NCBI GenBank assembly: GCA_965230905.1
Contig: OZ246396.1
Coordinates: forward strand, 1-32,000
DNA length: 32,000 nt
Direction: 5' to 3'
Source of the DNA: Candidatus Saccharimonadota bacterium
GTDB lineage: Bacteria; Patescibacteriota; Gracilibacteria; UBA1369; 2-02-FULL-48-14
Position numbers and translations under genes: made by a program. The notes below the pieces were generated by a model that saw only the letters and a list, made by a program, of their open reading frames with translations, made no database searches and was not told the DNA's origin. This document shows positions 13,113-30,745 of this stretch, one piece after another. The first letter of the stretch is position 1. Every line of letters begins with the position of its first letter.

Positions 13113-14069
13113 ATGATCAACGATAAAGTCACTCAAATTTTCATGGATATCGCGGATCTGCTGCAAGTGCAGGGCGAGAGTATTTTTCGTGTGCGGGCTT
13201 ATCAACGTGCGGCGGAAGTCATAAAAGGTCTGCCGTTGGATTTGGAAGAAATGTATACAAAAGACGAAGCCTCGCTGGAGGAAATTCCGGGTGTGGGAGC
13301 GGAGCTTAAACTCAAAATCATCGACATTATTAAGACGGGCACTACGCCGATGTATGAAGAGTTGGTTCGTAAGCTTGGACCGGGAGTTTTGCAAATGCTG
13401 AGGGTGCGCGGAGTGGGACCAAAAAAAGTGAAACTCTTTATGGAGCAGCTCGACATTCACGATGTGCCAGCTTTGAAAGCGGCTGGTGAAAGTGGCGCAC
13501 TCGCAACCTTGCCCGGCATGGGCGAAAAAAGTCAGTCCGCCATCATGGAATCTTTGTCACAAATGACGCATTTGAAAGAACGAACGCCTTATGCAGTAGC
13601 GCTCAAACAAGCCGAAGACATGATCGCGTATCTGCAAACCTGCGAGTACTTCGACCAAATTCAGTACGCCGGCAGTTTGCGCCGCAAAATGAAGACCATT
13701 GGGGACGTGGATATTTTGACGACCGGTTCGAATCACGAGGCCATGATGAAACACTTCCTCGCCTATCCCGGGTGCAAACAGGTTTTGGCGGACGGTGCCA
13801 CAAAGTGCAGCATCGTGACCGACATGGACATGCAGGTGGATTTGCGCGCCGTGCCCGAGGAAAGTTTTGGTGCCGCGCTGTTTTATTTCACGGGACCCAA
13901 GCATTTCAATATTCATGTTCGTACCATTGCGCTTAAACGCGGCTGGAAGATCAACGAATACGGCCTCTATGAAGGTGAAAATTTATTGGCGAGCAGCACG
14001 GAAGAAGAAATTTTTGAGCAACTGGGCCTGCCTTACATGACGCCGCAGCAACGAGAAGATTTTAAATAA
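13113..14069 (+). CDS. polX: family X DNA polymerase, polymerase-beta-like core only (no PHP domain)
   Basis: HhH motifs are IPGVGAELKLKI, VRGVGPKKVKLF and LPGMGEKSQSAI. The nucleotidyltransferase motif is GSLRRKMKTIGDVDIL. It also has a thumb region (FGAALFYFTGPKHFN, INEYGL). It ends at LGLPYMTPQQREDFK*, where full-length bacterial PolX proteins continue into a PHP domain. Confidence 0.85.
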   Translation: MINDKVTQIFMDIADLLQVQGESIFRVRAYQRAAEVIKGLPLDLEEMYTKDEASLEEIPGVGAELKLKIIDIIKTGTTPMYEELVRKLGPGVLQMLRVRGVGPKKVKLFMEQLDIHDVPALKAAGESGALATLPGMGEKSQSAIMESLSQMTHLKERTPYAVALKQAEDMIAYLQTCEYFDQIQYAGSLRRKMKTIGDVDILTTGSNHEAMMKHFLAYPGCKQVLADGATKCSIVTDMDMQVDLRAVPEESFGAALFYFTGPKHFNIHVRTIALKRGWKINEYGLYEGENLLASSTEEEIFEQLGLPYMTPQQREDFK

Positions 14070-15363: not shown

Positions 15364-15996
15364 ATGGAAAATTTAATTGCAGTTCTACAAAAGAAAAGCA
15401 CTGAGCTGAATTTATTTTCAGCCGGTGACCGCCTGAAGCTCGCGGATAAACACATCCCCGACGCCCTGGCGGTTTTAGATTTCTGGGAACCGGGCGCGCG
15501 AGTGGCGGATATTGGAACCGGCGGTGGACTGCCAGGTTTGGCGCTGGCCTGTGAACGAAGCGACCTGGAGTTTACGCTGGTGGATTCTACGGCTAAGAAA
15601 ATTGAAGCAATAATGGATATGGCTGAGGAATTGGATTTGCAGAATGTTCAGGGGCTAGTGGGCCGCTTCGAAGAATTGGCGCACGAGCGAAAATGGCGCG
15701 AACAGTTTGATACGGTAACGGCCCGCGCGGTGGCGGAATTGCCCGTGCTTTTGGAATATGTCGCAGGATTTTTGAAAGTCGGTGGAAAGTTTTACGCGTG
15801 GAAGGCGGATTATGCGGCGGAGTTGGAAGCTTCGCGCGCCGCTCAGGATATTTTGGGTTTGGAATTTGTGCGCGCGCACAAGTACACCCTGCCGACTGGA
15901 GAGGATCGAGCGATTTTAGAGTTTGAAAAAGTGGCGGCGCTGGCACGAGAGTATCCACGGATGAATGGGGTGCCTAAAGCGAAACCTTTAGCCTAG
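15364..15996 (+). CDS. rsmG: 16S rRNA m7G527 methyltransferase RsmG (GidB)
   Basis: The SAM motif is ADIGTGGGLPGLALA. It also contains DSTAKK and the family-typical RA.A.L..L.E.....L..GG. Confidence 0.9.
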   Translation: MENLIAVLQKKSTELNLFSAGDRLKLADKHIPDALAVLDFWEPGARVADIGTGGGLPGLALACERSDLEFTLVDSTAKKIEAIMDMAEELDLQNVQGLVGRFEELAHERKWREQFDTVTARAVAELPVLLEYVAGFLKVGGKFYAWKADYAAELEASRAAQDILGLEFVRAHKYTLPTGEDRAILEFEKVAALAREYPRMNGVPKAKPLA

Positions 15997-16473
15997 AACT
16001 CGCCTCACCCTAGGATACTGCCGAACGATAAAGTCCTGCACGACACCAAGATCCAAGTATTCTTCCTGTAAATCAGGTGGGAGAAATTTGAAATCGGTTA
16101 CAATTCCACGGCAAGTCTCTGCTCCGCACGCACACGGCAGCGTCCAATTATCTTCATCCATAGTCGTCGAGTAGTCGAAGAAGATTTCAGTGCCGCGACG
16201 TATTTCTGTTAAGGCGGTGAGTGTGAATTTTCGCAGACCCGCATTGGGCATACAAGAATGGTTCACCAAAACGTCCGGCTCAGGAAGGTCTAGGTAGATT
16301 TCAGCTCCAATCTGCAGAGGGCATCCATCCACCGGTCGTGCGAGGGCTTCTTCAAGAGTAATGATCGGCCCTCTAAAATCCAAAATAGGCTCACCCTTTC
16401 GGATGTCTTCTTTTGCATAAACGCCACGTCCTGCTATTCTGGAATCTGCAACGGTGATTTTCTCAAGGCCCAT
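15988..16473 (-). CDS. SET domain-containing protein-lysine N-methyltransferase
   Basis: Motifs are GRGVYA...I.KGE, NHSCMPN, EIFFDYS and a post-SET-like Cys cluster CACGAETCRG. Its 3' end overlaps the rsmG 3' end by 9 nt. Confidence 0.85.
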   Translation of the reverse strand: MGLEKITVADSRIAGRGVYAKEDIRKGEPILDFRGPIITLEEALARPVDGCPLQIGAEIYLDLPEPDVLVNHSCMPNAGLRKFTLTALTEIRRGTEIFFDYSTTMDEDNWTLPCACGAETCRGIVTDFKFLPPDLQEEYLDLGVVQDFIVRQYPRVRRVLG

Positions 16474-19504: not shown

Positions 19505-19915
19505 ATGGGAAGTTTTCCAAATAAGTTCACTGAAAGCGGGTATGCGAGTGTTTATTTGAATGATTTAGAAAGATGTCGGGGACAACTGACTCTAGACCAA
19601 TGTCGCGCTCTTTTTGATGCACTCAATTCATTTTTAATGCCGGTCCAAGCCACTGAATCCGAGCCTACTCCAGCTACGCTCGGCCTGCTCATTTTATTGG
19701 AGGCGAATGTGGGCCACAGAGGCCCTCTGGATAGTCTCACTAAGTTTGTAGAGATCTATGGATCGGAGCAAGCCAACGTGGATTATGCAGCAAATCGTCC
19801 TCATGAAATTCGCGGCGAAAAGCCCGAACTCACTCCTTCAGAAAAGCCCGTGGATCTTCAAGCGGTGAGCGCTCATATTAAGCTTTTGCTCAGAACTTGG
19901 GTAGGCCTCACTTAA
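19505..19915 (+). CDS. hypothetical protein (136 aa)
   Basis: ORF with a plausible promoter. No motif recognised. Its 3' end overlaps the PKD gene stop by 8 nt. Confidence 0.5.
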   Translation: MGSFPNKFTESGYASVYLNDLERCRGQLTLDQCRALFDALNSFLMPVQATESEPTPATLGLLILLEANVGHRGPLDSLTKFVEIYGSEQANVDYAANRPHEIRGEKPELTPSEKPVDLQAVSAHIKLLLRTWVGLT

Positions 19916-22079
19916 CCGTGATGGTCTTGGTGATGCTGTCCACGATGCCAGTGTCTTCAGTGATCTCAAGCGTGATCGTGTAGGTTCCTGCGCTGTCGTA
20001 GGTGTGGGTTCCCGGTTTGCGGTCGAAACTGATTTCGCCGTCGCCAAAGTTCCATTCATAACTTTGAATGGTTCCTTGTGAACAAGAAGGGTCCACCACC
20101 ACAAAGAGTGGCGCGTTACCGGTAGATTCGTTCACCGTGAAACATGCGGTGAGGGAAACGGGGCGTACCACCACTTGCATGGTATCAGTGGCTCGTTCAC
20201 CGTCATCGCCGATTACGGTGAGGGTCACCGTGTAGGTTCCCACGGCGTTGTATTTGTAAGTAACCGTGGCGTCGCCCACATAGAGGTCACTGCCGTCGCC
20301 GAAGTCGATTTCATAAGAAACGATGTCCCCTTCTTTATAAGTAGAAGCGGAGGCGTCGAAGGCAATGGTGAGGGGCACTTCTCCGTTGGAGCTGTTGGAT
20401 TCCAAAATGGCTACGATGCCTTGTTCGCCCACTTGCACAGCTACCGTGGTTTCGTCGGAATTTCCGGCGGAGTCGGTGACGATGAGGCGAGCTTCGTAGC
20501 TGCCGGTTTCGGCATAGGTGTAGGTCACCTTATTTCCGGTTTCGTCCACTTCGCCGTCGTTATCAAAATCCCATTCGTAATCCACAATGTCGTCCTCGGG
20601 ATCGGTGGAGCTGGATCCATCAAAGTCCACTTTCAAGGGCACGGCGCCAGAAACACTGCCAGCGGCAAGGGCTGGAGTGGTTTTGATCACGGCAGATGGA
20701 GGGGTTCCCTCTTCCACCACTTGGATTTCCAAAATGGCTTCATCCGAATTTCCATCCGCATCGAGCACGGTGAGAGAAACTTCATAGTCACCGGCGGTGT
20801 CATACGTGTGGCTCACGCTGCGGCTTTCGAGTTTGGTTCCATCCCCAAGGTCCCATTTGTATTTAACGATTTTTTGGTCGCGGTATTGGGAAAGCTCTCC
20901 ATCAAAGTCGTATTCTTCATCGATATAGTAAATTTCGCCGTCCCCGAGTGGAGGCGTGATGATGGCACGAAGTCCACCCACACTGCCGGCTTCAATGGTT
21001 TCGGTGACCGTAGCAAATTCTCCGTTGTTGTCGGTCACACGGAGCGTGATTTCGTAAGTTCCTTCCTGAAGGAATTCATACTCCACGATTTCTCCTTCGG
21101 CGTCATCAAAACGTCCATCGGCATCAAAGTCCCATTCGTAGGCCACGATTTCTCCATCTGGATCAAAAGAACTGGTGGCGTCGAATTCCACAAGCAGAGG
21201 CACTTCCCCACTGTCGGGCTTGGCCACAAAGGAAGCGGCCGTCATTTCGTTTTCAATCACTACTTCCGTAGAGGTTTCGTAATCGAAACGGGCTCCGCTC
21301 TTGAGGTCCATGTATTCCACATTCAATGTCACGGTGTAGATTCCGTTTCCTTCGGCTTTTTGAGTGTATTCATGCGTCACGGTCTGACCGTTCCCAGTGC
21401 TGCCGTCTCCAAAATTCCAGGTGTAAGCCAGGATGCTGTAGGTGCCGGTATCAATGGGAATCAAGCTCGCGTCAAAGGTAATAGTGATGGGCGACGTGAG
21501 TCCAATGGTGTCCTCCGGCGTGGTGATAATAGGTGAACCAAAACGCGCTTCGGTGACCAAGCGTGGACCCAGGAACCAAATTCCCACCAGCCACAAAACG
21601 GTGGCGAGTAAAAAGCCGAGTCCGTACCACAGCGCCATGCGAGAGAATTTTTTCTTCTTGTCGACTTCTTCTTTTTTAGTGAGCAAAGAACGTAGCAAAC
21701 CGTAGAGAGCCATGAGCAGTGTAATTCCCACAGTTACCCCCAAAAGCACATTGAAAATTCCGTAGAAGAATCCGCTCATGCTGGCTTGAGAAATGGGCAG
21801 GTAATTGAAAAGCGAAAGTTCTTTGTTGGCGAGGAAAAGAGCCCATGCAAACACAATCACCAGCAAAAGCACATAAGAAACGGCGCTCACGATTCCCAAA
21901 CGTTTGAACATGGCCTTACGCTTCGCCAACTTTTCTTCCGGCGTTAGCACTTTTTTAGGTGCGGGCGCGGGTGCCACAGCGGGAACCGGAGCCACTGGAG
22001 GCGGAACAGCAGAACCTGTCGGTTCAGCGGGGACAGGAATGCCTGAACCTGTCGGTTCAGTAGGCGTGGTTTCGTCCAT
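19908..22079 (-). CDS. membrane-anchored PKD-repeat protein (723 aa; Pro-rich N-terminus, 3 TM, 6 PKD domains)
   Basis: The N-terminus is PTEPTGSGIPVPAEPTGSAVPPPVAPVPAVAPAPAPKK. TM helices lie at about aa 61-83, 104-128 and 148-170. Six W-[DN]-[FL]-[GD]-D-G type PKD signatures are present: YTWNFGDGS, YEWDFDADG, YKWDLGDGT, YEWDFDNDG, YEIDFGDGS and YEWNFGDGE. Confidence 0.85.
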   Translation of the reverse strand: MDETTPTEPTGSGIPVPAEPTGSAVPPPVAPVPAVAPAPAPKKVLTPEEKLAKRKAMFKRLGIVSAVSYVLLLVIVFAWALFLANKELSLFNYLPISQASMSGFFYGIFNVLLGVTVGITLLMALYGLLRSLLTKKEEVDKKKKFSRMALWYGLGFLLATVLWLVGIWFLGPRLVTEARFGSPIITTPEDTIGLTSPITITFDASLIPIDTGTYSILAYTWNFGDGSTGNGQTVTHEYTQKAEGNGIYTVTLNVEYMDLKSGARFDYETSTEVVIENEMTAASFVAKPDSGEVPLLVEFDATSSFDPDGEIVAYEWDFDADGRFDDAEGEIVEYEFLQEGTYEITLRVTDNNGEFATVTETIEAGSVGGLRAIITPPLGDGEIYYIDEEYDFDGELSQYRDQKIVKYKWDLGDGTKLESRSVSHTYDTAGDYEVSLTVLDADGNSDEAILEIQVVEEGTPPSAVIKTTPALAAGSVSGAVPLKVDFDGSSSTDPEDDIVDYEWDFDNDGEVDETGNKVTYTYAETGSYEARLIVTDSAGNSDETTVAVQVGEQGIVAILESNSSNGEVPLTIAFDASASTYKEGDIVSYEIDFGDGSDLYVGDATVTYKYNAVGTYTVTLTVIGDDGERATDTMQVVVRPVSLTACFTVNESTGNAPLFVVVDPSCSQGTIQSYEWNFGDGEISFDRKPGTHTYDSAGTYTITLEITEDTGIVDSITKTITVK
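19911..21527 (-). repeat. array of six PKD/Ig-like domain repeats (coding)
   Basis: Units of ~85-95 aa each contain PL.V.FDAS.S.D.DG.I..Y.WDFGDG.....G....H.Y...G.Y.V.L.V.D..G. Confidence 0.8.
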
Positions 22080-22092
22080 ATTTAGCGTTTAA

Positions 22093-25000
22093 TTATAGGT
22101 TGTGGCTTCGCTTGGTTGACGATTTAAAAGTGAGGCTGATACCCGCGATGGCGGTTACCAGGGCGCTGACAATGAGCATCATCATTTCGCTGGGCGTAGC
22201 ATTGAAAAGATTAGCACTTCCCAAGGATCCTTCAAAGACAACTTGGAGCGTCGAAATGTCGCTCTCGCCGGTGTCTTCATCGGTCACGGTGAGTTTAACC
22301 ACCACTTGGCCGTAGGATTTGAAGAAAGGTGTCTTCCAGGTTCCTGAGGAATCGTCGTCGTAGTCTTCGTCGTTGTCACGGAGGCCGTCGCCATCGGTGT
22401 CGTAGAAAATGTTTTTATCCAGCACGTAGCTGAAGTTTCCACTTCCGCCTTCGGCTCCGTAGTAGAAGGTCACTTGATCGCCGTCGTCTTCCAAAATAAC
22501 TTGGCTCAGGGAGTTCGGCTGAGGCGTAGAGGTGAACAGCGCGGTCACGGGCTCAACCGGGTTGGGCACCTCCACGGTTTGAATCACGGTGTCGGTTTTT
22601 CCAAAGGTGTCTTCCACCAACATTTTCACTTCGTAATCCCCATAGTCGTCGTATTCAAAGGTAGGATTCTTGGTGGTCGCGTCGCTGTCGTTTTCAGGAT
22701 CGGTGTCGCCGTCCGTGTCGGCGGTGAGGTTGAGATCCCAGCTGTAACTGCGTACATCGGCGCCGTTGGCGGTGTCGAGCACGGTTTCATTTTTGAATTC
22801 AACGGTGCGATCTTCCACGTTATACGAGAAGCCGGCAACGGGTGCTTTGGTATCGAGCACGTTCACCGCTTGGGTTACGCTGTCGCTTTGGCCGGTGGTG
22901 TCCACCACGGTCATCTTAACTTGGTAGGTTCCCAAGGCTTCGTAAGTGTAGGAAGGATTTTCTTCAAAGGAATCGGAGTCGTCGTCCACGGTTCCGTTTC
23001 CATTGCTGTCCACAGCCGTGTTGAAGTCCCAGTAAATTCCCGTGAGGTCGGCTCCGTTTTCGGTGTCTATAATAGAGTTGTTGCGGAAGCTCACGGTGGT
23101 TCCGTTGATGTCCGCCAAGAAAGCGGCATCCGGCGCGGCAGAAACCGCGTCCACAAAAATGGTGAGCGATTCGGAGGTGGCGGTGGCACCAGAGCTGTCT
23201 TCTACTTTGAGTTGAACCTCCACTCCCTCAGGATGGATTTGGCTGAAAGCGTATTCCAAGGATCCGTCTTCGGTGGGCTCGTTATCAAAGAATCCGTTTC
23301 CTTCAATGTCCCACCAGTAGTTCACAATTTCTCCATCGGTATCGTAGGAGGTGCTGGAGAATGTGATTTCTTCACCCACATAAACCGAGGTGCGGTTCAC
23401 GGTGAATCCAGCCACGGGGGTGTCGTTGGGCCCATTGGTGACTTCCAAAGTTGGGATGGTCGCCGCTTCGAGTTCATCGAAGGACGACACGGTGTTGTTT
23501 TGATTGTCCGTCACTTCCACCGCAAATCCATATTCCAGCGCTTCGCCGGTTTCGCCTTTCGTATTAATAGTCATGCTGAAGGTATTGCTCGCGGAACTGA
23601 TGGTTCCGAGTTCGGTCGCGGTGTCGTTGAGGTCGTAGTACCACGCTCTAAAGTTAGTGAGCTTGCCGTCTTCATCGGTGGCATCCACCGTTACATTTAC
23701 TTTGAGCGGCGTTTCCAAACTGTCCCCTTGCGGAATCACGGTGAGCCCCAGAATCTCTGGGTCGATTCCTTCTATAGTGATGAGCAGTGAGGTTTCGTCG
23801 GTGATCGCGTTGTCGTCTTCATCACGCACTGTCAATTTCACGGTGTAGGTCGCGGTTTCAGTGAAGGTATGCGTTACGCTGGGTTGAGAGGAAGTGACTC
23901 CGTCTCCAAAATTCCAGCTGTATTCCAAGCCGTTCTTGCTTCCGTCCACGTTCACGGACTCGTTTGCGTCGAAACGGAACTGAGTTTTAATGCTTCCACG
24001 GAAATCTGCGCCGCTGCCAATGTCTTCTCCATTGGAACCGATGCTGATCACGGCGATAGGGCTGTCGCCCGCTCCTATATATACACGCTGGGTGATGGAA
24101 TTTCGGTCTTCCTCATCGTCGAGTGCGGTCAGCGTTACTTCAAAGACGCCGGCGGATTCGTAGATATGCGTGAAGATGGCTTCCCCACGAGTCACCGTGT
24201 CCGTGAAATCCACCGTGTCGTCTCCGTAGTCGATTTCAAAAGCAGTTCCCGTTTCGCTGAGAGCGCTGAATTCCACTTCGGCTTCTCCGTTTTCGTCCAA
24301 ATTACGAGCGGTTTCGCCTTGAATATCCAGGTCCACGTCGAGCACGGAATCTATGGTGATGCTACCGATGGCCGTGTCGCTCTTTTTGAGTTCGGCGTCG
24401 TGCTGATCGTAGGCGGTTAAGGAAACTGCGTATTCTCCTTCATTGAGGAATTGAACGGTGATTTCTTTATCTTCATTTTCGGTGTCGATGATTTCATAGT
24501 CCTGCCCTTCGATTCCATCAAAATCCCATTCCAAGGTCACTACGTCGCCTTCATCGGGGTCGTAGGTGGTGCTGGCGTCGAATAAGACGGTGGCGGGTTC
24601 AGTCGCATTGGGAATAGAGTACTCGTAAGTGGCCACGGGCGCCGTGGATTCCACTAAGACTTGGCCGGTTGCAGTGTCGGTTTTTCCGCTTCCGTCCGAA
24701 ACGGTGAGCGTTACGCTGTAGACACCCGGCTGATCCAAAACGGTGCTTAAGGTGGATTCGGTTCCGTTGGTCACGGGCACCGTCACGCCATTTTTACTGA
24801 TGTCCCACGAGTAACTCACTATTTTTCCATTTTCGGTGGTGGACCCAGAGGCATCGAAGTCAAACTCGGTGTCCACGGTTCCTTCGCTGGGGCTGGCTTT
24901 AAAGCGAGCTGCGGGCGAAGCCACGTAGAGTGTGAAGTATTTGCGGTCTTTGATTCCGGTGTCGTCTGTAACGGTGAACGAAACATTGTAGGAACCGGAT

Positions 25001-27099
25001 CCGGCGTAAGCATGGGTCACGGAGCTGCCTCCGTCTTGGCCATACGGACCGGAAGAAGTTTCATTGTCTCCAAAGTCCCATTCATAATAAACGATTCCGC
25101 CTTCGGCTCCGGTGTTGCCGTCTCCGTCGGTGGTTCCGCTGGCATCAAATAGGATGCCGGTCTTTGCTTCGGTCTCTGTCACTTTAAAGTCGTTTTGATC
25201 GATGTAAGGATAGGTTCTAAAATCTGCAATGGTGGCGGGCGTTTCGGTCCCCACTTGAGCGGTGAGCACCAGCATGGATTTAGAAGGTTCTACGGAAATC
25301 GTCACGGTAGAAACTCCGGCCGCGATGTCTGGATCCTTGCTGCGTACTCGTACGCGCACTCGGTAGGTTCCCGGCTCGCTAAAGGTCGCACTCACCGCGT
25401 CCCCGGACGTGTCTTCCGACGTCACGGCGGTGGTGTTTAAAGTTCCGGGAGCCTCGTCTGTTCCAACGGGTTCATAGGTTCCATCTCCGTTCAAATCCCA
25501 TTCAATTTGAGCATCTTCCACCGTCATTCCGCTGGGGTCTTCCGTTCCCAGTACATCGAAGCGCACAATGAGCGGATCGTTTCCAGAAGTGGTGCTGGCG
25601 GAGAGTCGTACTTTTACGAATTCCAAATTCTCCACCAAAACATAAAGGTCATTCATGGACGCCACAATTTGATTGGCGGTTTGAGCGTTTACATCGCTGA
25701 CGGTTGCGGCGGCGTTGAGCTTCTCGCTGGCGGTGGTGAAAGCCTCGAGCACAGCGGTGAGGTTGGACCCAGAATCAAAATCTCCGGTGTCAAAAAGCCC
25801 CTGCATCACATCAAAGCGAAACACGAGGTCCTCCACAGCCTCCGTGTAGTCGGCGATGGCTTTATTCTGAATTTCTTCCAAGAATCCACACACGTTGTCA
25901 TCTATATCCACAATATCCACTTCATAAATAGTCACACCCAATCCGAATTCCCGTTCCACTTCTGAGGAAACTTCACGGCTCGCACAAGAATCGCTTGTTT
26001 CAATGCCTTGCTCGATTTGCGTGATGATTTCTTCTACTGTGAAGGGGGCCGTGGGTATTGCGGCCGTGGCCTCAGGAATCACCAAGGCCCACAAGGTGTC
26101 TAGGATTGAAGATTGAGTCCCACTGCGCAAATAGTTGTAGAGCGCCTGTGCGGCTTCAAAGGTTTGGCTGAGGTTATCCACTTCTCCCTGAATATCATCC
26201 ACTCCTTCGCGGAGCATATCTATATAGTCTTCCACATCGCTTTCATCGATGAGCTTGTATTGGTCGGCAAAGTCATCGTCGGCCCCTTCGGCCCATTCTA
26301 TTAAGTACTGAAGCAATCCATCCAGCGTCCAGTCGGTTTCTTCCACATCCAGCAGGATCGGCATTTCTACCGATCGCATGTAGGCCACCTCCTGGCTCAC
26401 AGTGAGCAGGGTTTGGTAGGCTTTCACGTATTCCACGCTCACGTCTTCAATTTCTTCCAATACGCTTTCGGTATCAAAGGAAGCTCCAGTTTCGGTGATG
26501 GTGGTTCCATCTACGCTTTCGACGTCCCCGTTGGAATCTCCTCCTCCCGCTTGGAGCAAGGTGTTCACCAAGGCGTAGGAACCTAAAATAATGACAATAC
26601 CAATGGCGGCGTAGCCAATGCTCTTCTTTCCTTTAGAAGCCATTTCTTCATCCCCACGGCTCAGCACATACATAAGTCCTCCGTAGATCACAATCACCAC
26701 AGAGATCAATCCCAAAAATCCCAAGGCGTAGTTCACTATGCTTTGAATGAATTCACGGGCGCTCTTATTTTCGGTCAGGCTTTCGTCGTAACCCGCCTCA
26801 CTAGGTGGCTCCAATTTTCCATCGTACTCGGTAAAGTCGATCACTTCATCCGTACTGTCACACCCCAAGCCTCCACCAAAACCCTCGGCTAAGTCGGCAC
26901 ACTGCGATTGAATGATGTCTCCTTGAGCGGAATCAGAATCTCCTCCCGTTCCCAGCAAAGCGTCCACCGCGTCAGATCCTGATTCCACACACTCTCCATT
27001 GAGTGAAAAACTACACTCCTCTGCATTAGCAAAAGGCGCCGAAACTAAACTCAAACTAAGAGCAACAAGGAAGGTGGCAAGGGATCGGCGGAGGTTCAT
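22093..27099 (-). CDS. giant surface protein (1,668 aa): signal peptide, Cys-paired head, one VirB2/TrbC-like pilin hairpin, acidic region, ~11 PKD/Ig-like repeats, C-terminal TM + basic tail
   Basis: ORF 22093..27192 trimmed to ATG 27099, giving MNLRRSLATFLVALSLSLVSAPFANA|EEC, a good signal peptide. The hairpin reads IVNYALGFLGLISVVIVIYGGLMYVLSRGDEEMASKGKKSIGYAAIGIVIILGSYALVNTLL. PKD signatures include IEWDLNGDG, YEWDFGDNE, YSWDISKNG, LEWDFDGIE, FEIDYGDDT, YSWNFGDGV, YWWDIEGNG, IYWDFNTAV and YSWDLNLTA. The C-terminus is MMMLIVSALVTAIAGISLTFKSSTKRSHNL. Confidence 0.85.
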   Translation of the reverse strand: MNLRRSLATFLVALSLSLVSAPFANAEECSFSLNGECVESGSDAVDALLGTGGDSDSAQGDIIQSQCADLAEGFGGGLGCDSTDEVIDFTEYDGKLEPPSEAGYDESLTENKSAREFIQSIVNYALGFLGLISVVIVIYGGLMYVLSRGDEEMASKGKKSIGYAAIGIVIILGSYALVNTLLQAGGGDSNGDVESVDGTTITETGASFDTESVLEEIEDVSVEYVKAYQTLLTVSQEVAYMRSVEMPILLDVEETDWTLDGLLQYLIEWAEGADDDFADQYKLIDESDVEDYIDMLREGVDDIQGEVDNLSQTFEAAQALYNYLRSGTQSSILDTLWALVIPEATAAIPTAPFTVEEIITQIEQGIETSDSCASREVSSEVEREFGLGVTIYEVDIVDIDDNVCGFLEEIQNKAIADYTEAVEDLVFRFDVMQGLFDTGDFDSGSNLTAVLEAFTTASEKLNAAATVSDVNAQTANQIVASMNDLYVLVENLEFVKVRLSASTTSGNDPLIVRFDVLGTEDPSGMTVEDAQIEWDLNGDGTYEPVGTDEAPGTLNTTAVTSEDTSGDAVSATFSEPGTYRVRVRVRSKDPDIAAGVSTVTISVEPSKSMLVLTAQVGTETPATIADFRTYPYIDQNDFKVTETEAKTGILFDASGTTDGDGNTGAEGGIVYYEWDFGDNETSSGPYGQDGGSSVTHAYAGSGSYNVSFTVTDDTGIKDRKYFTLYVASPAARFKASPSEGTVDTEFDFDASGSTTENGKIVSYSWDISKNGVTVPVTNGTESTLSTVLDQPGVYSVTLTVSDGSGKTDTATGQVLVESTAPVATYEYSIPNATEPATVLFDASTTYDPDEGDVVTLEWDFDGIEGQDYEIIDTENEDKEITVQFLNEGEYAVSLTAYDQHDAELKKSDTAIGSITIDSVLDVDLDIQGETARNLDENGEAEVEFSALSETGTAFEIDYGDDTVDFTDTVTRGEAIFTHIYESAGVFEVTLTALDDEEDRNSITQRVYIGAGDSPIAVISIGSNGEDIGSGADFRGSIKTQFRFDANESVNVDGSKNGLEYSWNFGDGVTSSQPSVTHTFTETATYTVKLTVRDEDDNAITDETSLLITIEGIDPEILGLTVIPQGDSLETPLKVNVTVDATDEDGKLTNFRAWYYDLNDTATELGTISSASNTFSMTINTKGETGEALEYGFAVEVTDNQNNTVSSFDELEAATIPTLEVTNGPNDTPVAGFTVNRTSVYVGEEITFSSTSYDTDGEIVNYWWDIEGNGFFDNEPTEDGSLEYAFSQIHPEGVEVQLKVEDSSGATATSESLTIFVDAVSAAPDAAFLADINGTTVSFRNNSIIDTENGADLTGIYWDFNTAVDSNGNGTVDDDSDSFEENPSYTYEALGTYQVKMTVVDTTGQSDSVTQAVNVLDTKAPVAGFSYNVEDRTVEFKNETVLDTANGADVRSYSWDLNLTADTDGDTDPENDSDATTKNPTFEYDDYGDYEVKMLVEDTFGKTDTVIQTVEVPNPVEPVTALFTSTPQPNSLSQVILEDDGDQVTFYYGAEGGSGNFSYVLDKNIFYDTDGDGLRDNDEDYDDDSSGTWKTPFFKSYGQVVVKLTVTDEDTGESDISTLQVVFEGSLGSANLFNATPSEMMMLIVSALVTAIAGISLTFKSSTKRSHNL
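22234..25614 (-). repeat. array of ~10-11 PKD/Ig-like domain repeats (coding), the last three with Asp-rich Ca-binding-like inserts
   Basis: PKD signatures recur every ~90-110 aa. The inserts DSNGNGTVDDDSD, DTDGDTDPENDSD and DTDGDGLRDNDEDYDDD resemble thrombospondin-type-3 / DxDxDG calcium loops. There are no cysteines in the array. Confidence 0.75.
26551..26763 (-). other. single VirB2/TrbC-like pilin hairpin module inside the giant protein
   Basis: Two TM helices are joined by the loop SRGDEEMASKGKKS. This matches the six modules of the two upstream genes, and its helix-2 ending SYALVNTLL is like their third units. Confidence 0.7.
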
Positions 27100-27178
27100 T
27101 TTGATATCGCTTGCGCGATGTCTTATTAGGCACTGACGTGCTTGGTGGCGTATTTCCATGGTAGTATAGAGGTTTTTA

Positions 27179-28150
27179 TCAGGACGCATCAAGAGTAACC
27201 ACTGTATTCACAATGGCGAAGGCGGCGAGTGCCAGAATAATTCCCACGGCGGCTCCCATCATGATCTTCTTGGATTTGGCTACGTTGTCCTCGTTTTGAG
27301 CGCCCAGCGTGTACAAATAACCGGCGTACAAAAGGAAGGCAAAGGCCAAGGTTCCCATGGTTCCGACAATAAAGTTGGTGACTTGAACAAAGAGCAGCTT
27401 GGCTTCGTCGATTCCCAATTTGGTTCCTTGGTTTTGAAAAAGCACTTCTTTAACGGCGAACTCAGAAATTCCAATAACAAAGAGTCCCACCAAAGCCCAG
27501 GTGATTTGCTTCTTAGCTTTGGCGATTTGATCGTCGTTGGCGCTGCCGGCCACATAACGCATACCGGCCGTAACCAACATGAACACGGCAATGGAGGCAA
27601 TCACCACTTCCACCAGCCCATAAATTCCCGCAAAGAAAGTGGAGCTTTGTCGTCCAAATTCCTTAGCAGTGTCTTCTCCCGAACGTAAAATCTGGCCTTC
27701 GGCACCAAAGAACACTTCAATCAGTGAATCCGATACGAAGATGAGAATGAGTCCTTGCAGAGCATAACTGACAAAATTCTTGGATTGGCTGAGCACTTCT
27801 TCATTGTCTCTTCCGGCCGTGACCATACGTATTCCCATCATCACAATGAACAGAATGGCGATGGGGGTCACCATCAGTTTAAAAAAGTCCAGGAAGCGTT
27901 GAATGGCGGCCACAATGATGTCCGCCCCTTCCCCTTGTTCCGAGAAACTGGGCAACTCAATACCACCAGAGGGTTCAGCATCCGGATCGGCGTCTTCTTC
28001 TCCATCTTCCACTTGGCTGCTTTCTTCACTCACGTCTTCCTGCAAATCTTCCAGAATATTCTTATAATTGAAATCATCGGCCAGGGCCAACGCAGAGGGT
28101 GCGAAGACCAGGGAGGAAAGAATCGTCAATAAAAGAAGGATTTTTTTCAT
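27179..28150 (-). CDS. secreted membrane protein with three tandem VirB2/TrbC-like (T4SS_pilin-type) hairpin modules (323 aa)
   Basis: The signal peptide is MKKILLLLTILSSLVFAPSALALA|DD, followed by an acidic linker. The three units lie at nt 27707-27922, 27437-27643 and 27194-27403, with loops TAGRDNEEVLSQSKN, AGSANDDQIAKAKKQ and LGAQNEDNVAKSKKI. Confidence 0.8.
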   Translation of the reverse strand: MKKILLLLTILSSLVFAPSALALADDFNYKNILEDLQEDVSEESSQVEDGEEDADPDAEPSGGIELPSFSEQGEGADIIVAAIQRFLDFFKLMVTPIAILFIVMMGIRMVTAGRDNEEVLSQSKNFVSYALQGLILIFVSDSLIEVFFGAEGQILRSGEDTAKEFGRQSSTFFAGIYGLVEVVIASIAVFMLVTAGMRYVAGSANDDQIAKAKKQITWALVGLFVIGISEFAVKEVLFQNQGTKLGIDEAKLLFVQVTNFIVGTMGTLAFAFLLYAGYLYTLGAQNEDNVAKSKKIMMGAAVGIILALAAFAIVNTVVTLDAS

Positions 28151-28151
28151 A

Positions 28152-29081
28152 TTAGAAGGATCCGGTGATTACTGTGGATACCAGGGCAAAGGCTCCGTAA
28201 ATAATGATCACTCCAATGATGGAGTTGAAAACAATTTTTTTGGCGAGGCCGGTTCGTTCTTCGTCTCCACCGGCAGTAACATATAAAATTCCTCCTGCTA
28301 CGATTCCCAGCATCATGATGGGCCCCACAAAAGTAATGATTAAATTGGTGACTCCAACCAATTGTTGCACAAATTCATTTTGATCGAGCTTCACAATGGT
28401 TTGATTGGCGTTTTCATTGAATTCGGCCACGTAGAACACGCGGCGAATCATCAGGTCAGACACAATCACCATCAGGAGCCCTCCAGCCGCCAAGGCCAGA
28501 CTTTTCTTCTCCTTCCCCACTTCTTCTTCGTTGTCTCCGGCAACCACCATCATGGCTCCGCTTCGGATAAACATCAGGGAGGCGAGTCCTCCCAAGAGGT
28601 ATTTCACAAAAGTAATGATGAGACGGGTCGTGTTGTCGAAAAGTTGAATCCGCTGCACCAGCTTATCGGGGTCGGAAATAAAATTTCCTTCGCGGTAGTC
28701 GAAGACTTCGGCAATAGGGCCGGCAATACTGATCATTAGGAGTCCTATCAACCCGTAGGTCATGGACTTTTTCTGGGTTTTAGCCGTTTCTTCGTTGTCG
28801 CCGGAAATCACCATAGTGAACCCGGAAACCACAATAAAGAGCAGCGCCACCCCACCCACAATGATGCGCAAATTGCGTGCCGCGGGGCCGAGCAGGTTTT
28901 CCAGTTTTTCAAAGGCGCTGTCTCCTTCCGGAGCCGGCACGTCCAAGTCGTCGTTGCTTGGCAAAGGCAAGAAATCCGCTAAGGCATGCGGCGCATGAGC
29001 GGCCACCGCACCCAAAACCACAGCGAGCACAAGGCCCCCTAGGTGCAGTTTTCCAACTTTTTCAAACAGAGATCGTGCCAT
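28152..29081 (-). CDS. secreted membrane protein with three tandem VirB2/TrbC-like (T4SS_pilin-type) hairpin modules (309 aa)
   Basis: The signal peptide ends AAHAPHALA|DF. The three units lie at nt 28701-28904, 28431-28640 and 28164-28376, with loops ISGDNEETAKTQKKS, VAGDNEEEVGKEKKS and TAGGDEERTGLAKKI. The third unit (GGILYVTAGGDEERTGLAKKIVFNSIIGVIIIYGAFALV) is very close to the canonical single-hairpin CPR pilin-like proteins I remember. Confidence 0.8.
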   Translation of the reverse strand: MARSLFEKVGKLHLGGLVLAVVLGAVAAHAPHALADFLPLPSNDDLDVPAPEGDSAFEKLENLLGPAARNLRIIVGGVALLFIVVSGFTMVISGDNEETAKTQKKSMTYGLIGLLMISIAGPIAEVFDYREGNFISDPDKLVQRIQLFDNTTRLIITFVKYLLGGLASLMFIRSGAMMVVAGDNEEEVGKEKKSLALAAGGLLMVIVSDLMIRRVFYVAEFNENANQTIVKLDQNEFVQQLVGVTNLIITFVGPIMMLGIVAGGILYVTAGGDEERTGLAKKIVFNSIIGVIIIYGAFALVSTVITGSF

Positions 29082-29123: not shown

Positions 29124-29152
29124 ATTATAGCAGAAAATGATCTGAAAGTAAA
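29124..29152 (-). promoter_or_regulatory. putative sigma70-type promoter of the hairpin/PKD operon, TTTACT-17 nt-TGcTATAAT (extended -10)
   Basis: The reverse strand reads TTTACTttcagatcattttctgcTATAAT. It is followed by a ~40-nt leader containing the hairpin GACCC-tatc-GGGTC (29096-29109) before ATG 29081. Confidence 0.4.
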
Positions 29153-29502: not shown

Positions 29503-30051
29503 ATGGCAAAACAGGCAAAAAACACCGGACGAAACTGGTACGTGATCCACACCTATAGCGGGTATGAAGACGCGGTTCGGGAAGCGCTTCTACAGCGTAT
29601 TGAATCCATGAACATGCAAGACAAGATTTTTGATGTGATTGTGCCTAAAGAAACGCAAATTGTGGTGAAGAAAGGTAAGCCAAAAACAGAGAAAAAACGT
29701 CTTTTCCCAGGTTATGTGCTCGTGGACATGACCGTAGACGATGAATCTTGGTACGTGGTGCGAAACACCCCCAACGTGACCGGGTTCGTAGGTTCTGGAA
29801 CCATTCCAGTGCCCGTTTCTGGAGAAGAATTCGGCGTGATTCAACGTTACCTCGAAGACGACAATGCTCCTAAGTTCAAGATCACGCTCAGCAAGACGGA
29901 TCTCGTTATGGTGCTGGATGGACCTTTTGCGGGTTACGAAGGAGTGGTGAACGAAATCGATGAAGAAAAGGGTAAAGTGAAGGTAATGATCTCCATCTTC
30001 GGACGCGAAACGCCTGTGGAATTGGATTTTGATCAAGTTAAGAAGAAGTAG
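29503..30051 (+). CDS. nusG: transcription termination/antitermination factor NusG
   Basis: The NGN domain shows NWYVIHTYSGYEDAV and FPGYVLV. The KOW domain shows DGPFAGYEGVVNEIDEEKGKVKVMISIFGRETPVELDFDQV. Confidence 0.95.
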   Translation: MAKQAKNTGRNWYVIHTYSGYEDAVREALLQRIESMNMQDKIFDVIVPKETQIVVKKGKPKTEKKRLFPGYVLVDMTVDDESWYVVRNTPNVTGFVGSGTIPVPVSGEEFGVIQRYLEDDNAPKFKITLSKTDLVMVLDGPFAGYEGVVNEIDEEKGKVKVMISIFGRETPVELDFDQVKKK

Positions 30052-30121
30052 TAAGATTGGATGGCTTCGCCACTTTTTAATAGGCACTAAAGTGCCTGGC
30101 CTCCGCTACGCTGCGGTCTGC

Positions 30122-30745
30122 ATGCAGAAACTCACCCTTTTTTCGGTTCTGCTTTCTATCTCCGTGATCCTCATCGTGGGAGACATTGTCTTTCATGACT
30201 ATTTAAACGAGTTCGAAGCCACAAGCCCCGTGGAGGAAACTTCTGAAGTCGCACCTTTAGATGAAGAGGCGCCTGTGGATCTTTCGGAAGAAACGGAGCC
30301 CACTTTGATTGAGTCATCGCTGAGTGCGGCGCTGTTCACGCAGGCTGGGTTTGTGCAACCGGTGCTCAAAGACACTATTTTTTCCGGCTTGGTATTCCAG
30401 TTCATTTCTTTTGCCGATCAGGAAGAGGCCACGGTCTACCAATGGAACGTTTTTGACGGCGAGCAGTACGTTGGCAGCGTGTATGAGATGAAGTACCCTA
30501 CCGAAACCGGCAGTTTTCAGGGTTATTTGGCTCTGCGGGAGCGCGCCATGAGTCTTATGGACTTGGGAAGCGTGAACGAAGTGAACAATTATGGAAACGC
30601 GTCTTTCTACTTCAATCACAAGACCAAAGTTAAGACTGTGCACGTGGTGGTTCGCAGTGGGAATGACATTTATGGCTTTGAGTACGCACAGACGAATCAT
30701 GAAAAGATGAAAAATGTGTTTGACAGCCTAAGCCCCCTTCTGTAG
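30122..30745 (+). CDS. hypothetical membrane-anchored protein (207 aa) inserted between nusG and rplK
   Basis: ORF 30029..30745 trimmed to ATG 30122 ([24 protein letters not shown], an N-terminal TM anchor). The upstream codons overlap the nusG end. An acidic linker is followed by a ~130-aa globular part. No motif recognised. Confidence 0.6.

Follow-up and report, generated by a model that had tools for sequence, protein, structure and literature searches.

Concatenated VirB2-like pilin hairpins in a conserved gene cassette of Peregrinibacteria

VirB2-like pilins are described as an unexpected feature of the monoderm-type type IV secretion system (T4SS) of Patescibacteria (PMC12102498, PMC10633639, PMC12857230). 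They have received recent attention and are essential in the one genetically tractable species. The published survey of Quinonero-Coronel et al. 2025 reports arrays of 2–11 separate VirB2-like pilin genes in 383 assemblies, with an average identity of 25% (PMC12102498). Such arrays are known in Saccharibacteria, and the pilin series of the Southlakia epibionticum T4SS cluster is recorded as essential (PMC10633639, PMC12102498, PMC12857230). The element considered here is a cassette of four genes, in the order B-A-C-D and all on the (-) strand, within a 32,000 nucleotide stretch (contig OZ246396.1, positions 1 to 32,000, assembly GCA_965230905.1) that is referred to as the window. Genes B and A, which come first, are ancient paralogues, each encoding three VirB2/TrbC-like (PF18895) hairpins in one chain, preceded by a signal peptide.

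The VirB2, TrbC and TraA pilins (PF04956) have, like A and B, a signal peptide, a two-helix hydrophobic hairpin, a short charged loop and both termini on the same side. An earlier note on this DNA stated that known pilins of this kind are single hairpins, which holds for the characterised ones; A and B instead have three hairpins per chain. They also differ in not being beside virB3/virB4, both in the window and within 10 kb in 56–65 related loci. No solved pilin was matched, and any polymerisation of A and B is putative. The likeness to the patescibacterial pilin arrays is closer. Both consist of divergent, side by side PF18895 paralogues in the same phylum, and the pairwise identity among the seven hairpin modules of B, A and C, 17–39%, is comparable with the 25% given for the arrays by the survey (PMC12102498). 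While B, A and C are at least two adjacent, divergent PF18895 genes, as in an array, each pilin is not a separate gene: six of the seven modules are fused 3+3, and this is kept in 56 genomes. The number and order of modules are conserved in these genomes, whereas arrays vary, and the cassette is coupled to PKD proteins and is not near virB4. Concatemers do occur inside such pilin arrays in other candidate phyla radiation (CPR) lineages. The fused-hairpin architecture is abundant in metagenome data, yet no paper describing several PF18895 hairpins in one chain was found in the literature searched, which spans not all journals.

Repeated hairpins in genes A and B

Gene B (28152–29081) encodes 309 amino acids and gene A (27179–28150) encodes 323; both open reading frames (ORFs) exist as the earlier note had them. 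The stop codon of B and the start of A are separated by 1 nt, which is operon-like spacing. The exact gene B protein is the NCBI hypothetical protein AAB383_05510, from a 1.3-Mb contig. An alternative genetic code was ruled out, the ORFs being intact in table 11 with TGA as the stop of gene A.

In B, a predicted signal peptide at approximately residues 1–35, ending HALA before DF, is followed by three PF18895 hairpins. Units 1 (B1; 28686–28913, residues 57–132, loop SGDNEETAKTQKK) and 2 (B2; 28416–28673, residues 137–222, loop AGDNEEEVGKEKK) are of an internal type, B2 being the one nearest to A1, A2 and B1 alike, while unit 3 (B3; 28155–28397, residues 229–309, VTN...YGAFALVSTV) is of a terminal, or canonical, type and carries a sub-threshold TrbC/VirB2 match. 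Gene A has a predicted signal peptide at approximately residues 1–24 and an acidic N-terminal region, followed by two internal-type hairpins, A1 (27695–27928, residues 75–152) and A2 (27425–27670, residues 161–242), and one of the terminal/canonical type, A3 (27182–27424, residues 243–323, VTNF...AAFAIVNTV). The six unit sequences quoted previously are all exact in the translations and their low-end coordinates agree to within 3 nt; the high-end coordinates given with them carry 9–13 extra upstream residues.

The T4SS_pilin model PF18895, which has a gathering score of 26.6 bits, matches three stretches in A (E 6.1e-21; 74.7 bits), three in B (3.2e-21; 75.6 bits) and one in the downstream 1699-residue ORF that holds gene C (4.5e-8; 33.5 bits). 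All three proteins are thus members of the family by its own criterion, and 66 of 66 B orthologues match it. The features of the family, a signal peptide and a hydrophobic hairpin of two helices joined by a short charged loop, are present in A and B on the basis of hydropathy, AlphaFold2 models and loop composition, the leader being judged from its hydrophobic segment and the ALA-before-D motifs. Matches to PF04956 (TrbC/VirB2) in the window are below the 27.9-bit gathering score of that family, at 16.6 bits for B (E 0.009) and 25.6 bits for C (E 1.4e-5), and none is listed for gene A in the Pfam scan of the window proteins. Among the B orthologues, however, 40 of 66 match PF04956 at E ≤ 0.01, the best at 1.3e-9. 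Remote homology to TrbC/VirB2 is therefore credible. These are not type IV pilins with a class III signal peptide, a candidate rejected on the classical Sec-type leaders ending ALA before D, the lack of a prepilin motif and the lack of any type IV pilus Pfam match in A and B.

The earlier note proposed three homologous hairpins in each protein, and the repeat statistics bear this out in addition to the Pfam matches. All 21 Smith-Waterman pairs of the seven modules score above shuffled sequences, with z = 5.7–19 and 0–1 of 300 shuffles equalling the observed score. The module scores are 55–135, as against 23–60 for reversed-sequence controls that keep the hydrophobic pattern of transmembrane (TM) segment, loop and TM segment. 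A hidden Markov model built from the seven modules finds exactly seven significant modules in a six-frame scan of the whole window. Exactly three modules are likewise present in 238 of 240 database homologues, these being the listed matches to A and B together, and an acidic/basic loop motif of the [DN]EE...KxKK type is kept in all six A/B loops in the consensus lines of the orthologues.

By hydropathy, A and B each have a leader segment and six further segments of TM length. AlphaFold2 models, built with 66–69 homologues, have three long helical hairpins per protein, with a mean predicted local distance difference test score (pLDDT) of 70.9 for B and 79.1 for A and of 80–93 in the hairpin blocks. 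The first helices are predicted at 36–44 residues and the second at 30–33, with turns of 3–4 residues. Lysine and arginine are about twice as dense in the loops as in the connectors, and acidic character is strong in the N-terminal regions. Together with a cleaved leader, this agrees with loops on the inside and connectors on the outside, so that the signal peptide, six TM helices and cytoplasmic charged loops predicted previously are consistent with hydropathy, models and loop charge alike. The linkers, which the earlier note put at about 20–30 residues, are shorter in the models: the connectors have 4–18 non-helical residues, the remainder being a helical N-terminal extension of the next unit, and that between units 2 and 3 of B contains a small beta-hairpin (residues 219–230).

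Conservation and ancestry of the units

Homologues of A and of B, with at least 120 cluster representatives each, are of near-constant length (about 305–310 amino acids for B). They come from metagenome-assembled genomes (MAGs) labelled Peregrinibacteria, Peribacteria, Gracilibacteria or "Patescibacteria group", where they are named "pilin" or hypothetical protein. Taking one genome per GTDB species gave 65 loci from Peregrinibacteria and Peribacteria, of which 56 have an architecture of exactly three, three and one hairpins on one strand, the single hairpin being in a protein of about 1600 amino acids. The remaining loci are mostly cut by contig ends, and one is split by a frameshift. A gene C orthologue is in the same position in 56 loci, a D-like PKD protein is downstream in 46, and purF, purD and the lyase gene recur in the flanks. 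The triple architecture is therefore ancient in both genes.

The two genomes that were inspected in full have the same order, secE-nusG-L11-L1 followed by B, A, C and D and then the lyase. Identity to these genomes is 65% and 44% for B and 58% and 36% for A, compared to 64% and 53% for SecE and 68% for the lyase; A and B are less conserved than NusG and L11. As the identity of A and B is similar to that of SecE and the lyase, the cassette is a vertically inherited, moderately constrained core feature rather than a mobile or hypervariable one, and it is fixed in Peregrinibacteria/Peribacteria. Contigs with the same three, three and one arrangement are also present in MAGs labelled Nitrospirota by GTDB/NCBI (L049, L052, L053 and L055); these are most likely mis-binned Peregrinibacteria contigs.

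The relationships of the units were addressed by neighbour joining on close relatives, where each of the six positional classes is monophyletic with 88–100% bootstrap. Grouping of the three units by gene has 0% bootstrap, and a recent independent triplication in each gene is therefore excluded. It is concluded that the three units were already in both genes in the common ancestor of the clade. A clade of A3, B3 and the gene C hairpin (C1) has 92% bootstrap. Class profiles built from 56 genomes and compared by hhalign likewise separate two module types: scores are 106–124 within the terminal type (A3, B3, C1) and 97–120 within the internal type (A1, A2, B1, B2), but only 51–86 between the types. 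By these comparisons units 1 and 2 of A and B are a derived, internal type. An outgroup of single-hairpin and sevenfold pilins from another CPR locus is nearer to the terminal type (81.5–97.5) than to the internal (68–83), which suggests that the terminal unit is the canonical, ancestral-like form.

The earlier note held that units 1, 2 and 3 of A correspond in order to units 1, 2 and 3 of B, the triplication having preceded the gene duplication. For unit 3 this orthology is secure on both phylogeny and profiles. For units 1 and 2 it was not upheld, the evidence from 78 alignment columns being conflicting or weak across all of the comparisons. In the window, the Smith-Waterman score of B2 is 104 with B1, 103 with A1 and 84 with A2. 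Between profiles, A1 scores highest with B2 (120), and B1 is equidistant (97–98) from A1, A2 and B2. Four-point bootstraps give 71–81% to the pairing of A1 with B2 and A2 with B1, 17–20% to the positional pairing of A1 with B1 and A2 with B2, and 2–8% to pairing within genes. Neighbour joining on the close relatives places A1 with B1 at 56% and A2 with B2 at 21%, and when divergent genomes are included no pairing of internal units exceeds 9%. Across these tests independent duplication in each gene has the lowest support, at 0–8%, and it is likewise rejected.

The internal units have some features of their own. A conserved [SA]-[DE] pair is located in the outer part of the second helix of A1 (near residue 141), A2 (near residue 230) and B2 (near residue 209), where terminal-type units have [SA]-F-A. 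This pair could form a salt bridge, within a unit or between units, that only the internal type has. An F-x-K-Y motif ahead of the first helix is also common to A1 and B2.

Concatenated hairpins are not confined to this cassette. A search of 1.84 billion representative proteins with the seven-module profile found 60,330 matches at E ≤ 1e-3, 6,099 at ≤ 1e-10 and 246 at ≤ 1e-30. Module re-scanning covered 148 new sequences among the best 150 of the 60,330 matches, and these carry 2–11 hairpins per protein: two in 2 proteins, three in 95, four in 27, five in 8, six in 9, seven in 3, eight in 3 and eleven in 1. The library's own count of matching stretches reaches 16 in one protein. Within the re-scanned set the last unit of three-unit proteins is of the terminal type in 97% of cases and the other units in 7%; proteins with at least four units show this less clearly (67% and 31%). 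Named sources of concatemers are Andersenbacteria and an Altiarchaeales archaeon. Since concatenated PF18895 proteins are abundant in public data, the A/B locus belongs to a broad class of such architectures and does not stand alone.

One such locus, L004, has an eightfold concatemer of seven internal-type units and one terminal-type unit followed by a single-hairpin pilin, a pilin-PKD fusion and a PKD protein, an independent recurrence of the B-A-C-D logic. In other CPR loci sixfold to sevenfold concatemers are within arrays of classical single pilins of 106–128 amino acids. In two of these, on related contigs (L005, 9005–14262, and L071, 8321–12663), genes for GyrA, a methyltransferase and a solute-binding protein are upstream. 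Four 106-residue pilin copies in these arrays are 62–79% identical to each other, and the concatemer units share 21–46% identity among themselves and 21–45% with the array's other pilin genes. The archaeal proteins of 8–16 units adjoin genes for ribosomal L39e and an Mrp antiporter, with no pilus genes nearby. Two Altiarchaeales-type contigs with multi-hairpin PF18895/TrbC proteins (L072, 10001–15328, and L073, 4175–9247) differ in their gene structure: two adjacent genes of 617 and 1039 amino acids on one of them correspond in position to a single gene of 1775 amino acids on the other. Concatemers would thus have undergone fusion or fission. VirB4 was not found within 10 kb in the inspected concatemer loci outside Peregrinibacteria.

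The PKD partners and the possible role of the cassette

Gene C (22093–27099) is one hairpin fused to about 1,450 amino acids of PKD repeats. It is contained in a long ORF (22093–27192) listed as 1699 amino acids, the likely start being the ATG at 27099 (MNLRRSLATF...), from which the product has about 1668 amino acids. Its signal peptide is followed by an acidic region with cysteines, a single PF18895 hairpin of the terminal type, at least nine PKD domains and a C-terminal TM segment. The hairpin (26539–26784, residues 137–218 of the long ORF) has A3 and B3 as its nearest relatives, with Smith-Waterman scores of 124 and 135. The stretch from leader to hairpin (26800–27020) is acidic and has five cysteines (ECSFSLNGEC...QCADL...GLGC). 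The C-terminus (22093–22200) has a hydrophobic segment and a basic tail, MMMLIVSALVTAIAGISLTFKSSTKRSHNL, with which the gene C product would be anchored at both ends.

Gene D (19908–22079, 723 amino acids) encodes a membrane-anchored PKD protein. A Pro/Ala-rich N-terminus, predicted to be cytoplasmic, is followed by three TM segments, including a hairpin with the loop KKEEVDKKKK, and by six PKD domains. This hairpin (21555–21776, residues 102–175, loop TKKEEVDKKKK) resembles the pilin module only weakly (7.7 bits with one sequence, E 0.23 window-wide, 49% probability by hhalign with four orthologues). An extra TM segment comes before it. It was not counted as a module, but it may be a very divergent eighth hairpin.

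Two further groups of proteins are instructive for comparison. The hairpins of the proteolipids (c/K) of archaeal A-type and V-type ATPases are duplicated, triplicated (Methanocaldococcus jannaschii) or present 13-fold (Methanopyrus kandleri) in one chain. As in A and B, a TM-hairpin protomer of a homo-oligomer would have been concatenated over a similar range of repeats, fixing stoichiometry and leaving the copies free to diverge. The families are unrelated and the proteolipids form rotor rings and not pilin assemblies, so that the analogy is one of design only; by that analogy, covalent concatenation of hairpins is a proven way of fixing stoichiometry. The second group is the surface adhesins of Gram-positive T4SS and pilus-tip adhesins, such as PrgB and the VirB5-type tip proteins. 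Like these, C would put a large adhesive ectodomain on a pilin-type anchor, although it has no sequence relationship to them and differs in its direct fusion of hairpin and PKD domains and in its extra C-terminal TM segment. As a PrgB-like adhesin was not detected in Patescibacteria in the results given by the survey (PMC12102498), the PKD-pilin fusion could fill that role.

It is tentatively proposed, at a little under even chances, that A and B are the VirB2-like pilin arrays of Patescibacteria in a fused form with fixed stoichiometry, and that they make up a pilin-derived scaffold for PKD adhesins. The proteins would be inserted by the Sec pathway so that their [DN]EE...KxKK loops face the cytoplasm and the N-termini and the connectors between units are external. 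Packed against each other like pilin subunits, the seven hairpins (3+3+1) would give a membrane-rooted pilin bundle or a short stalk resembling a pilus, in which composition and the order of neighbours are fixed. The C hairpin would plug into this assembly, and the best hint of a shared interface is the terminal-type module that A3, B3 and C1 have in common. Such an assembly would hold and present C and (perhaps) D, as PKD adhesins, for binding to a particle or a host cell, and the concatenation would be the covalent counterpart of the arrays of 2–11 VirB2-like genes in other Patescibacteria.

If the fused forms assemble like pilins, subunits that are individually specialised and joined covalently can make up a conjugative-type pilin lattice, and the fixed unit order is a natural handle on which subunit neighbours which. 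The cassette is a concrete and testable candidate for a host-attachment organelle of Peregrinibacteria, which to our knowledge have no cultured member. For annotation, counts of "pilin genes" underestimate pilin units, and PF18895 proteins far from virB4 should be seen as a coherent, conserved system and not as stray matches. A broader possibility, which is doubtful, is that concatemers of 2 to about 16 units are an undescribed class of T4SS-type pilins in CPR bacteria and some archaea, in which linkage hard-wires the order and stoichiometry of the lattice. The 3+3+1 set of Peregrinibacteria would then make a PKD-adhesin-tipped or -decorated organelle without a neighbouring T4SS ATPase locus, which would be a new kind of attachment structure.

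Several observations count against the scaffold proposal. No VirB4-type T4SS ATPase or other T4SS gene is within 10 kb in any examined cassette locus (56–65 loci), which leaves the cassette unconnected to a machinery for pilus assembly. A large ATPase is not conserved near the cassette in these loci either, and their large singleton ORFs are without T4SS domains. The predicted TM score (pTM) of the A and B models is 0.47–0.51, so the arrangement of the hairpins relative to each other is not fixed by the models and their packing is uncertain. Neither the module profile against PDB sequences nor the whole chains in Foldseek matched a solved structure. In addition, the PKD proteins are taken as putative adhesins from their domain content.

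The best of the alternatives, although an unlikely one, makes A and B the major subunits of a genuine extracellular pilus of the T4SS type. The three-hairpin chains would be drawn out of the membrane by a VirB4-type ATPase whose gene is elsewhere in the genome and polymerised, probably together with lipid, to give a helical filament that has a covalent trimer as its asymmetric unit; C would be a tip or decorating adhesin. The lack of any T4SS gene within 10 kb in 56 genomes argues against this. In its favour, the survey reports the T4SS components of class Gracilibacteria as scattered rather than grouped with virB4 (PMC12102498). The homology to TrbC/VirB2 is remote but real, and the sixfold to sevenfold concatemers inside arrays of 106-residue single pilins in other CPR loci also favour a pilus. 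Predicted helices of 30–44 residues with both termini on the outer side would be compatible with the linking of neighbouring subunits; the connectors, however, are conserved and partly structured, as in the beta-hairpin of B, which is unusual for a simple tether. The cassette is also conserved like a housekeeping envelope component, whereas the arrays diverge to the average identity stated in the survey (PMC12102498).

A decidedly unlikely explanation is that A and B are stationary six-TM proteins descended from pilins, acting as a channel, platform or transporter component. A stand-in for VirB6 is one form of this, VirB6 homologues being reported as not detected in Gracilibacteria in the survey's account (PMC12102498). 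The six TM helices, the conserved connectors and the moderate-to-high conservation would suit such a role, as would the Altiarchaeales concatemers of 8–16 hairpins beside housekeeping and Mrp antiporter genes. Against it, no known polytopic fold is similar and no transporter family is above threshold, the pilin loop motif is kept in every unit, and the linkage to the pilin-PKD fusion is invariant. The range of 2–16 repeats across relatives is also a better fit to a modular, polymer-like unit than to a fixed channel fold.

It is very improbable that A and B are polyprotein precursors, in which the charged loop and second helix of each unit act as an internal signal-like element and a signal-peptidase-type cut releases three different pilins at 1:1:1. 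The KxKK loop with its hydrophobic helix does resemble the n- and h-regions of a signal peptide, although the second helices, at a predicted 30–33 residues, would extend past the membrane segment and be longer than cleavable h-regions. TrbC-type pilins undergo C-terminal processing, which would be a precedent for such cleavage. Candidate sites are the near-invariant S-x-A-G-P at the end of B unit 1 (S118, A120, G121, P122) and the [AS]-[FY]-A ahead of the C-terminal tail of the third units, but in the consensus lines A1, A2 and B2 do not share a small-x-small site at their ends, and the connectors are conserved as if structural. That the repeats are an illusion of shared TM composition, the six helices being unrelated, has only the general caution that TM segments align easily in its favour and has next to no chance of being correct: it is refuted by the separate match of a curated Pfam model to each unit, by z-scores of up to 19 and reversed controls that preserve hydrophobic periodicity, by the module counts of the homologues, and by loop and flanking motifs conserved position by position in more than 100 orthologues.

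Surrounding genes

The divergent genes on the upstream side of B are secE, nusG, a conserved hypothetical gene, rplK and rplA. In the 190-bp spacer between B and secE is a promoter-like site for B (29124–29152, (-) strand), TTTACT-17-TATAAT with a TG extension, which at 10 of 12 positions is the top consensus match of the region. The number of promoter-like matches in the region upstream of B is not above that expected from shuffling, and the site is therefore only suggestive.

The hypothetical gene between nusG and rplK (30029–30745, (+) strand) encodes about 200 amino acids with one predicted membrane segment and no Pfam match. It is in the same place in two other Peregrinibacteria genomes, at 56% and 36% identity (L001, 8453–9076, and L003, 8463–9053), and is an unusual insertion in secE-nusG-rplKA.

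The other genes of the window include no T4SS, type II secretion system or type IV pilus gene. A mobile-element or prophage context was ruled out by the ribosomal, purine and housekeeping flanks with conserved synteny. The rest of the window is of a housekeeping nature, with genes for rRNA/tRNA methyltransferases, a ZnuA-type binding protein, a fumarase-class lyase, a Pol-beta-like protein and SET-domain proteins. Two of these, a SET-domain protein (15988–16473, (-) strand; E 7.7e-12) and the DNA polymerase beta-like protein of family X (13113–14069, (+) strand), are uncommon in small CPR genomes. In this otherwise housekeeping stretch, a 319-residue protein (986–1945, (-) strand) with a BRO-N domain (E 5.9e-6) and a faint match to the AbiJ N-terminus is possibly phage-derived or defence-related.

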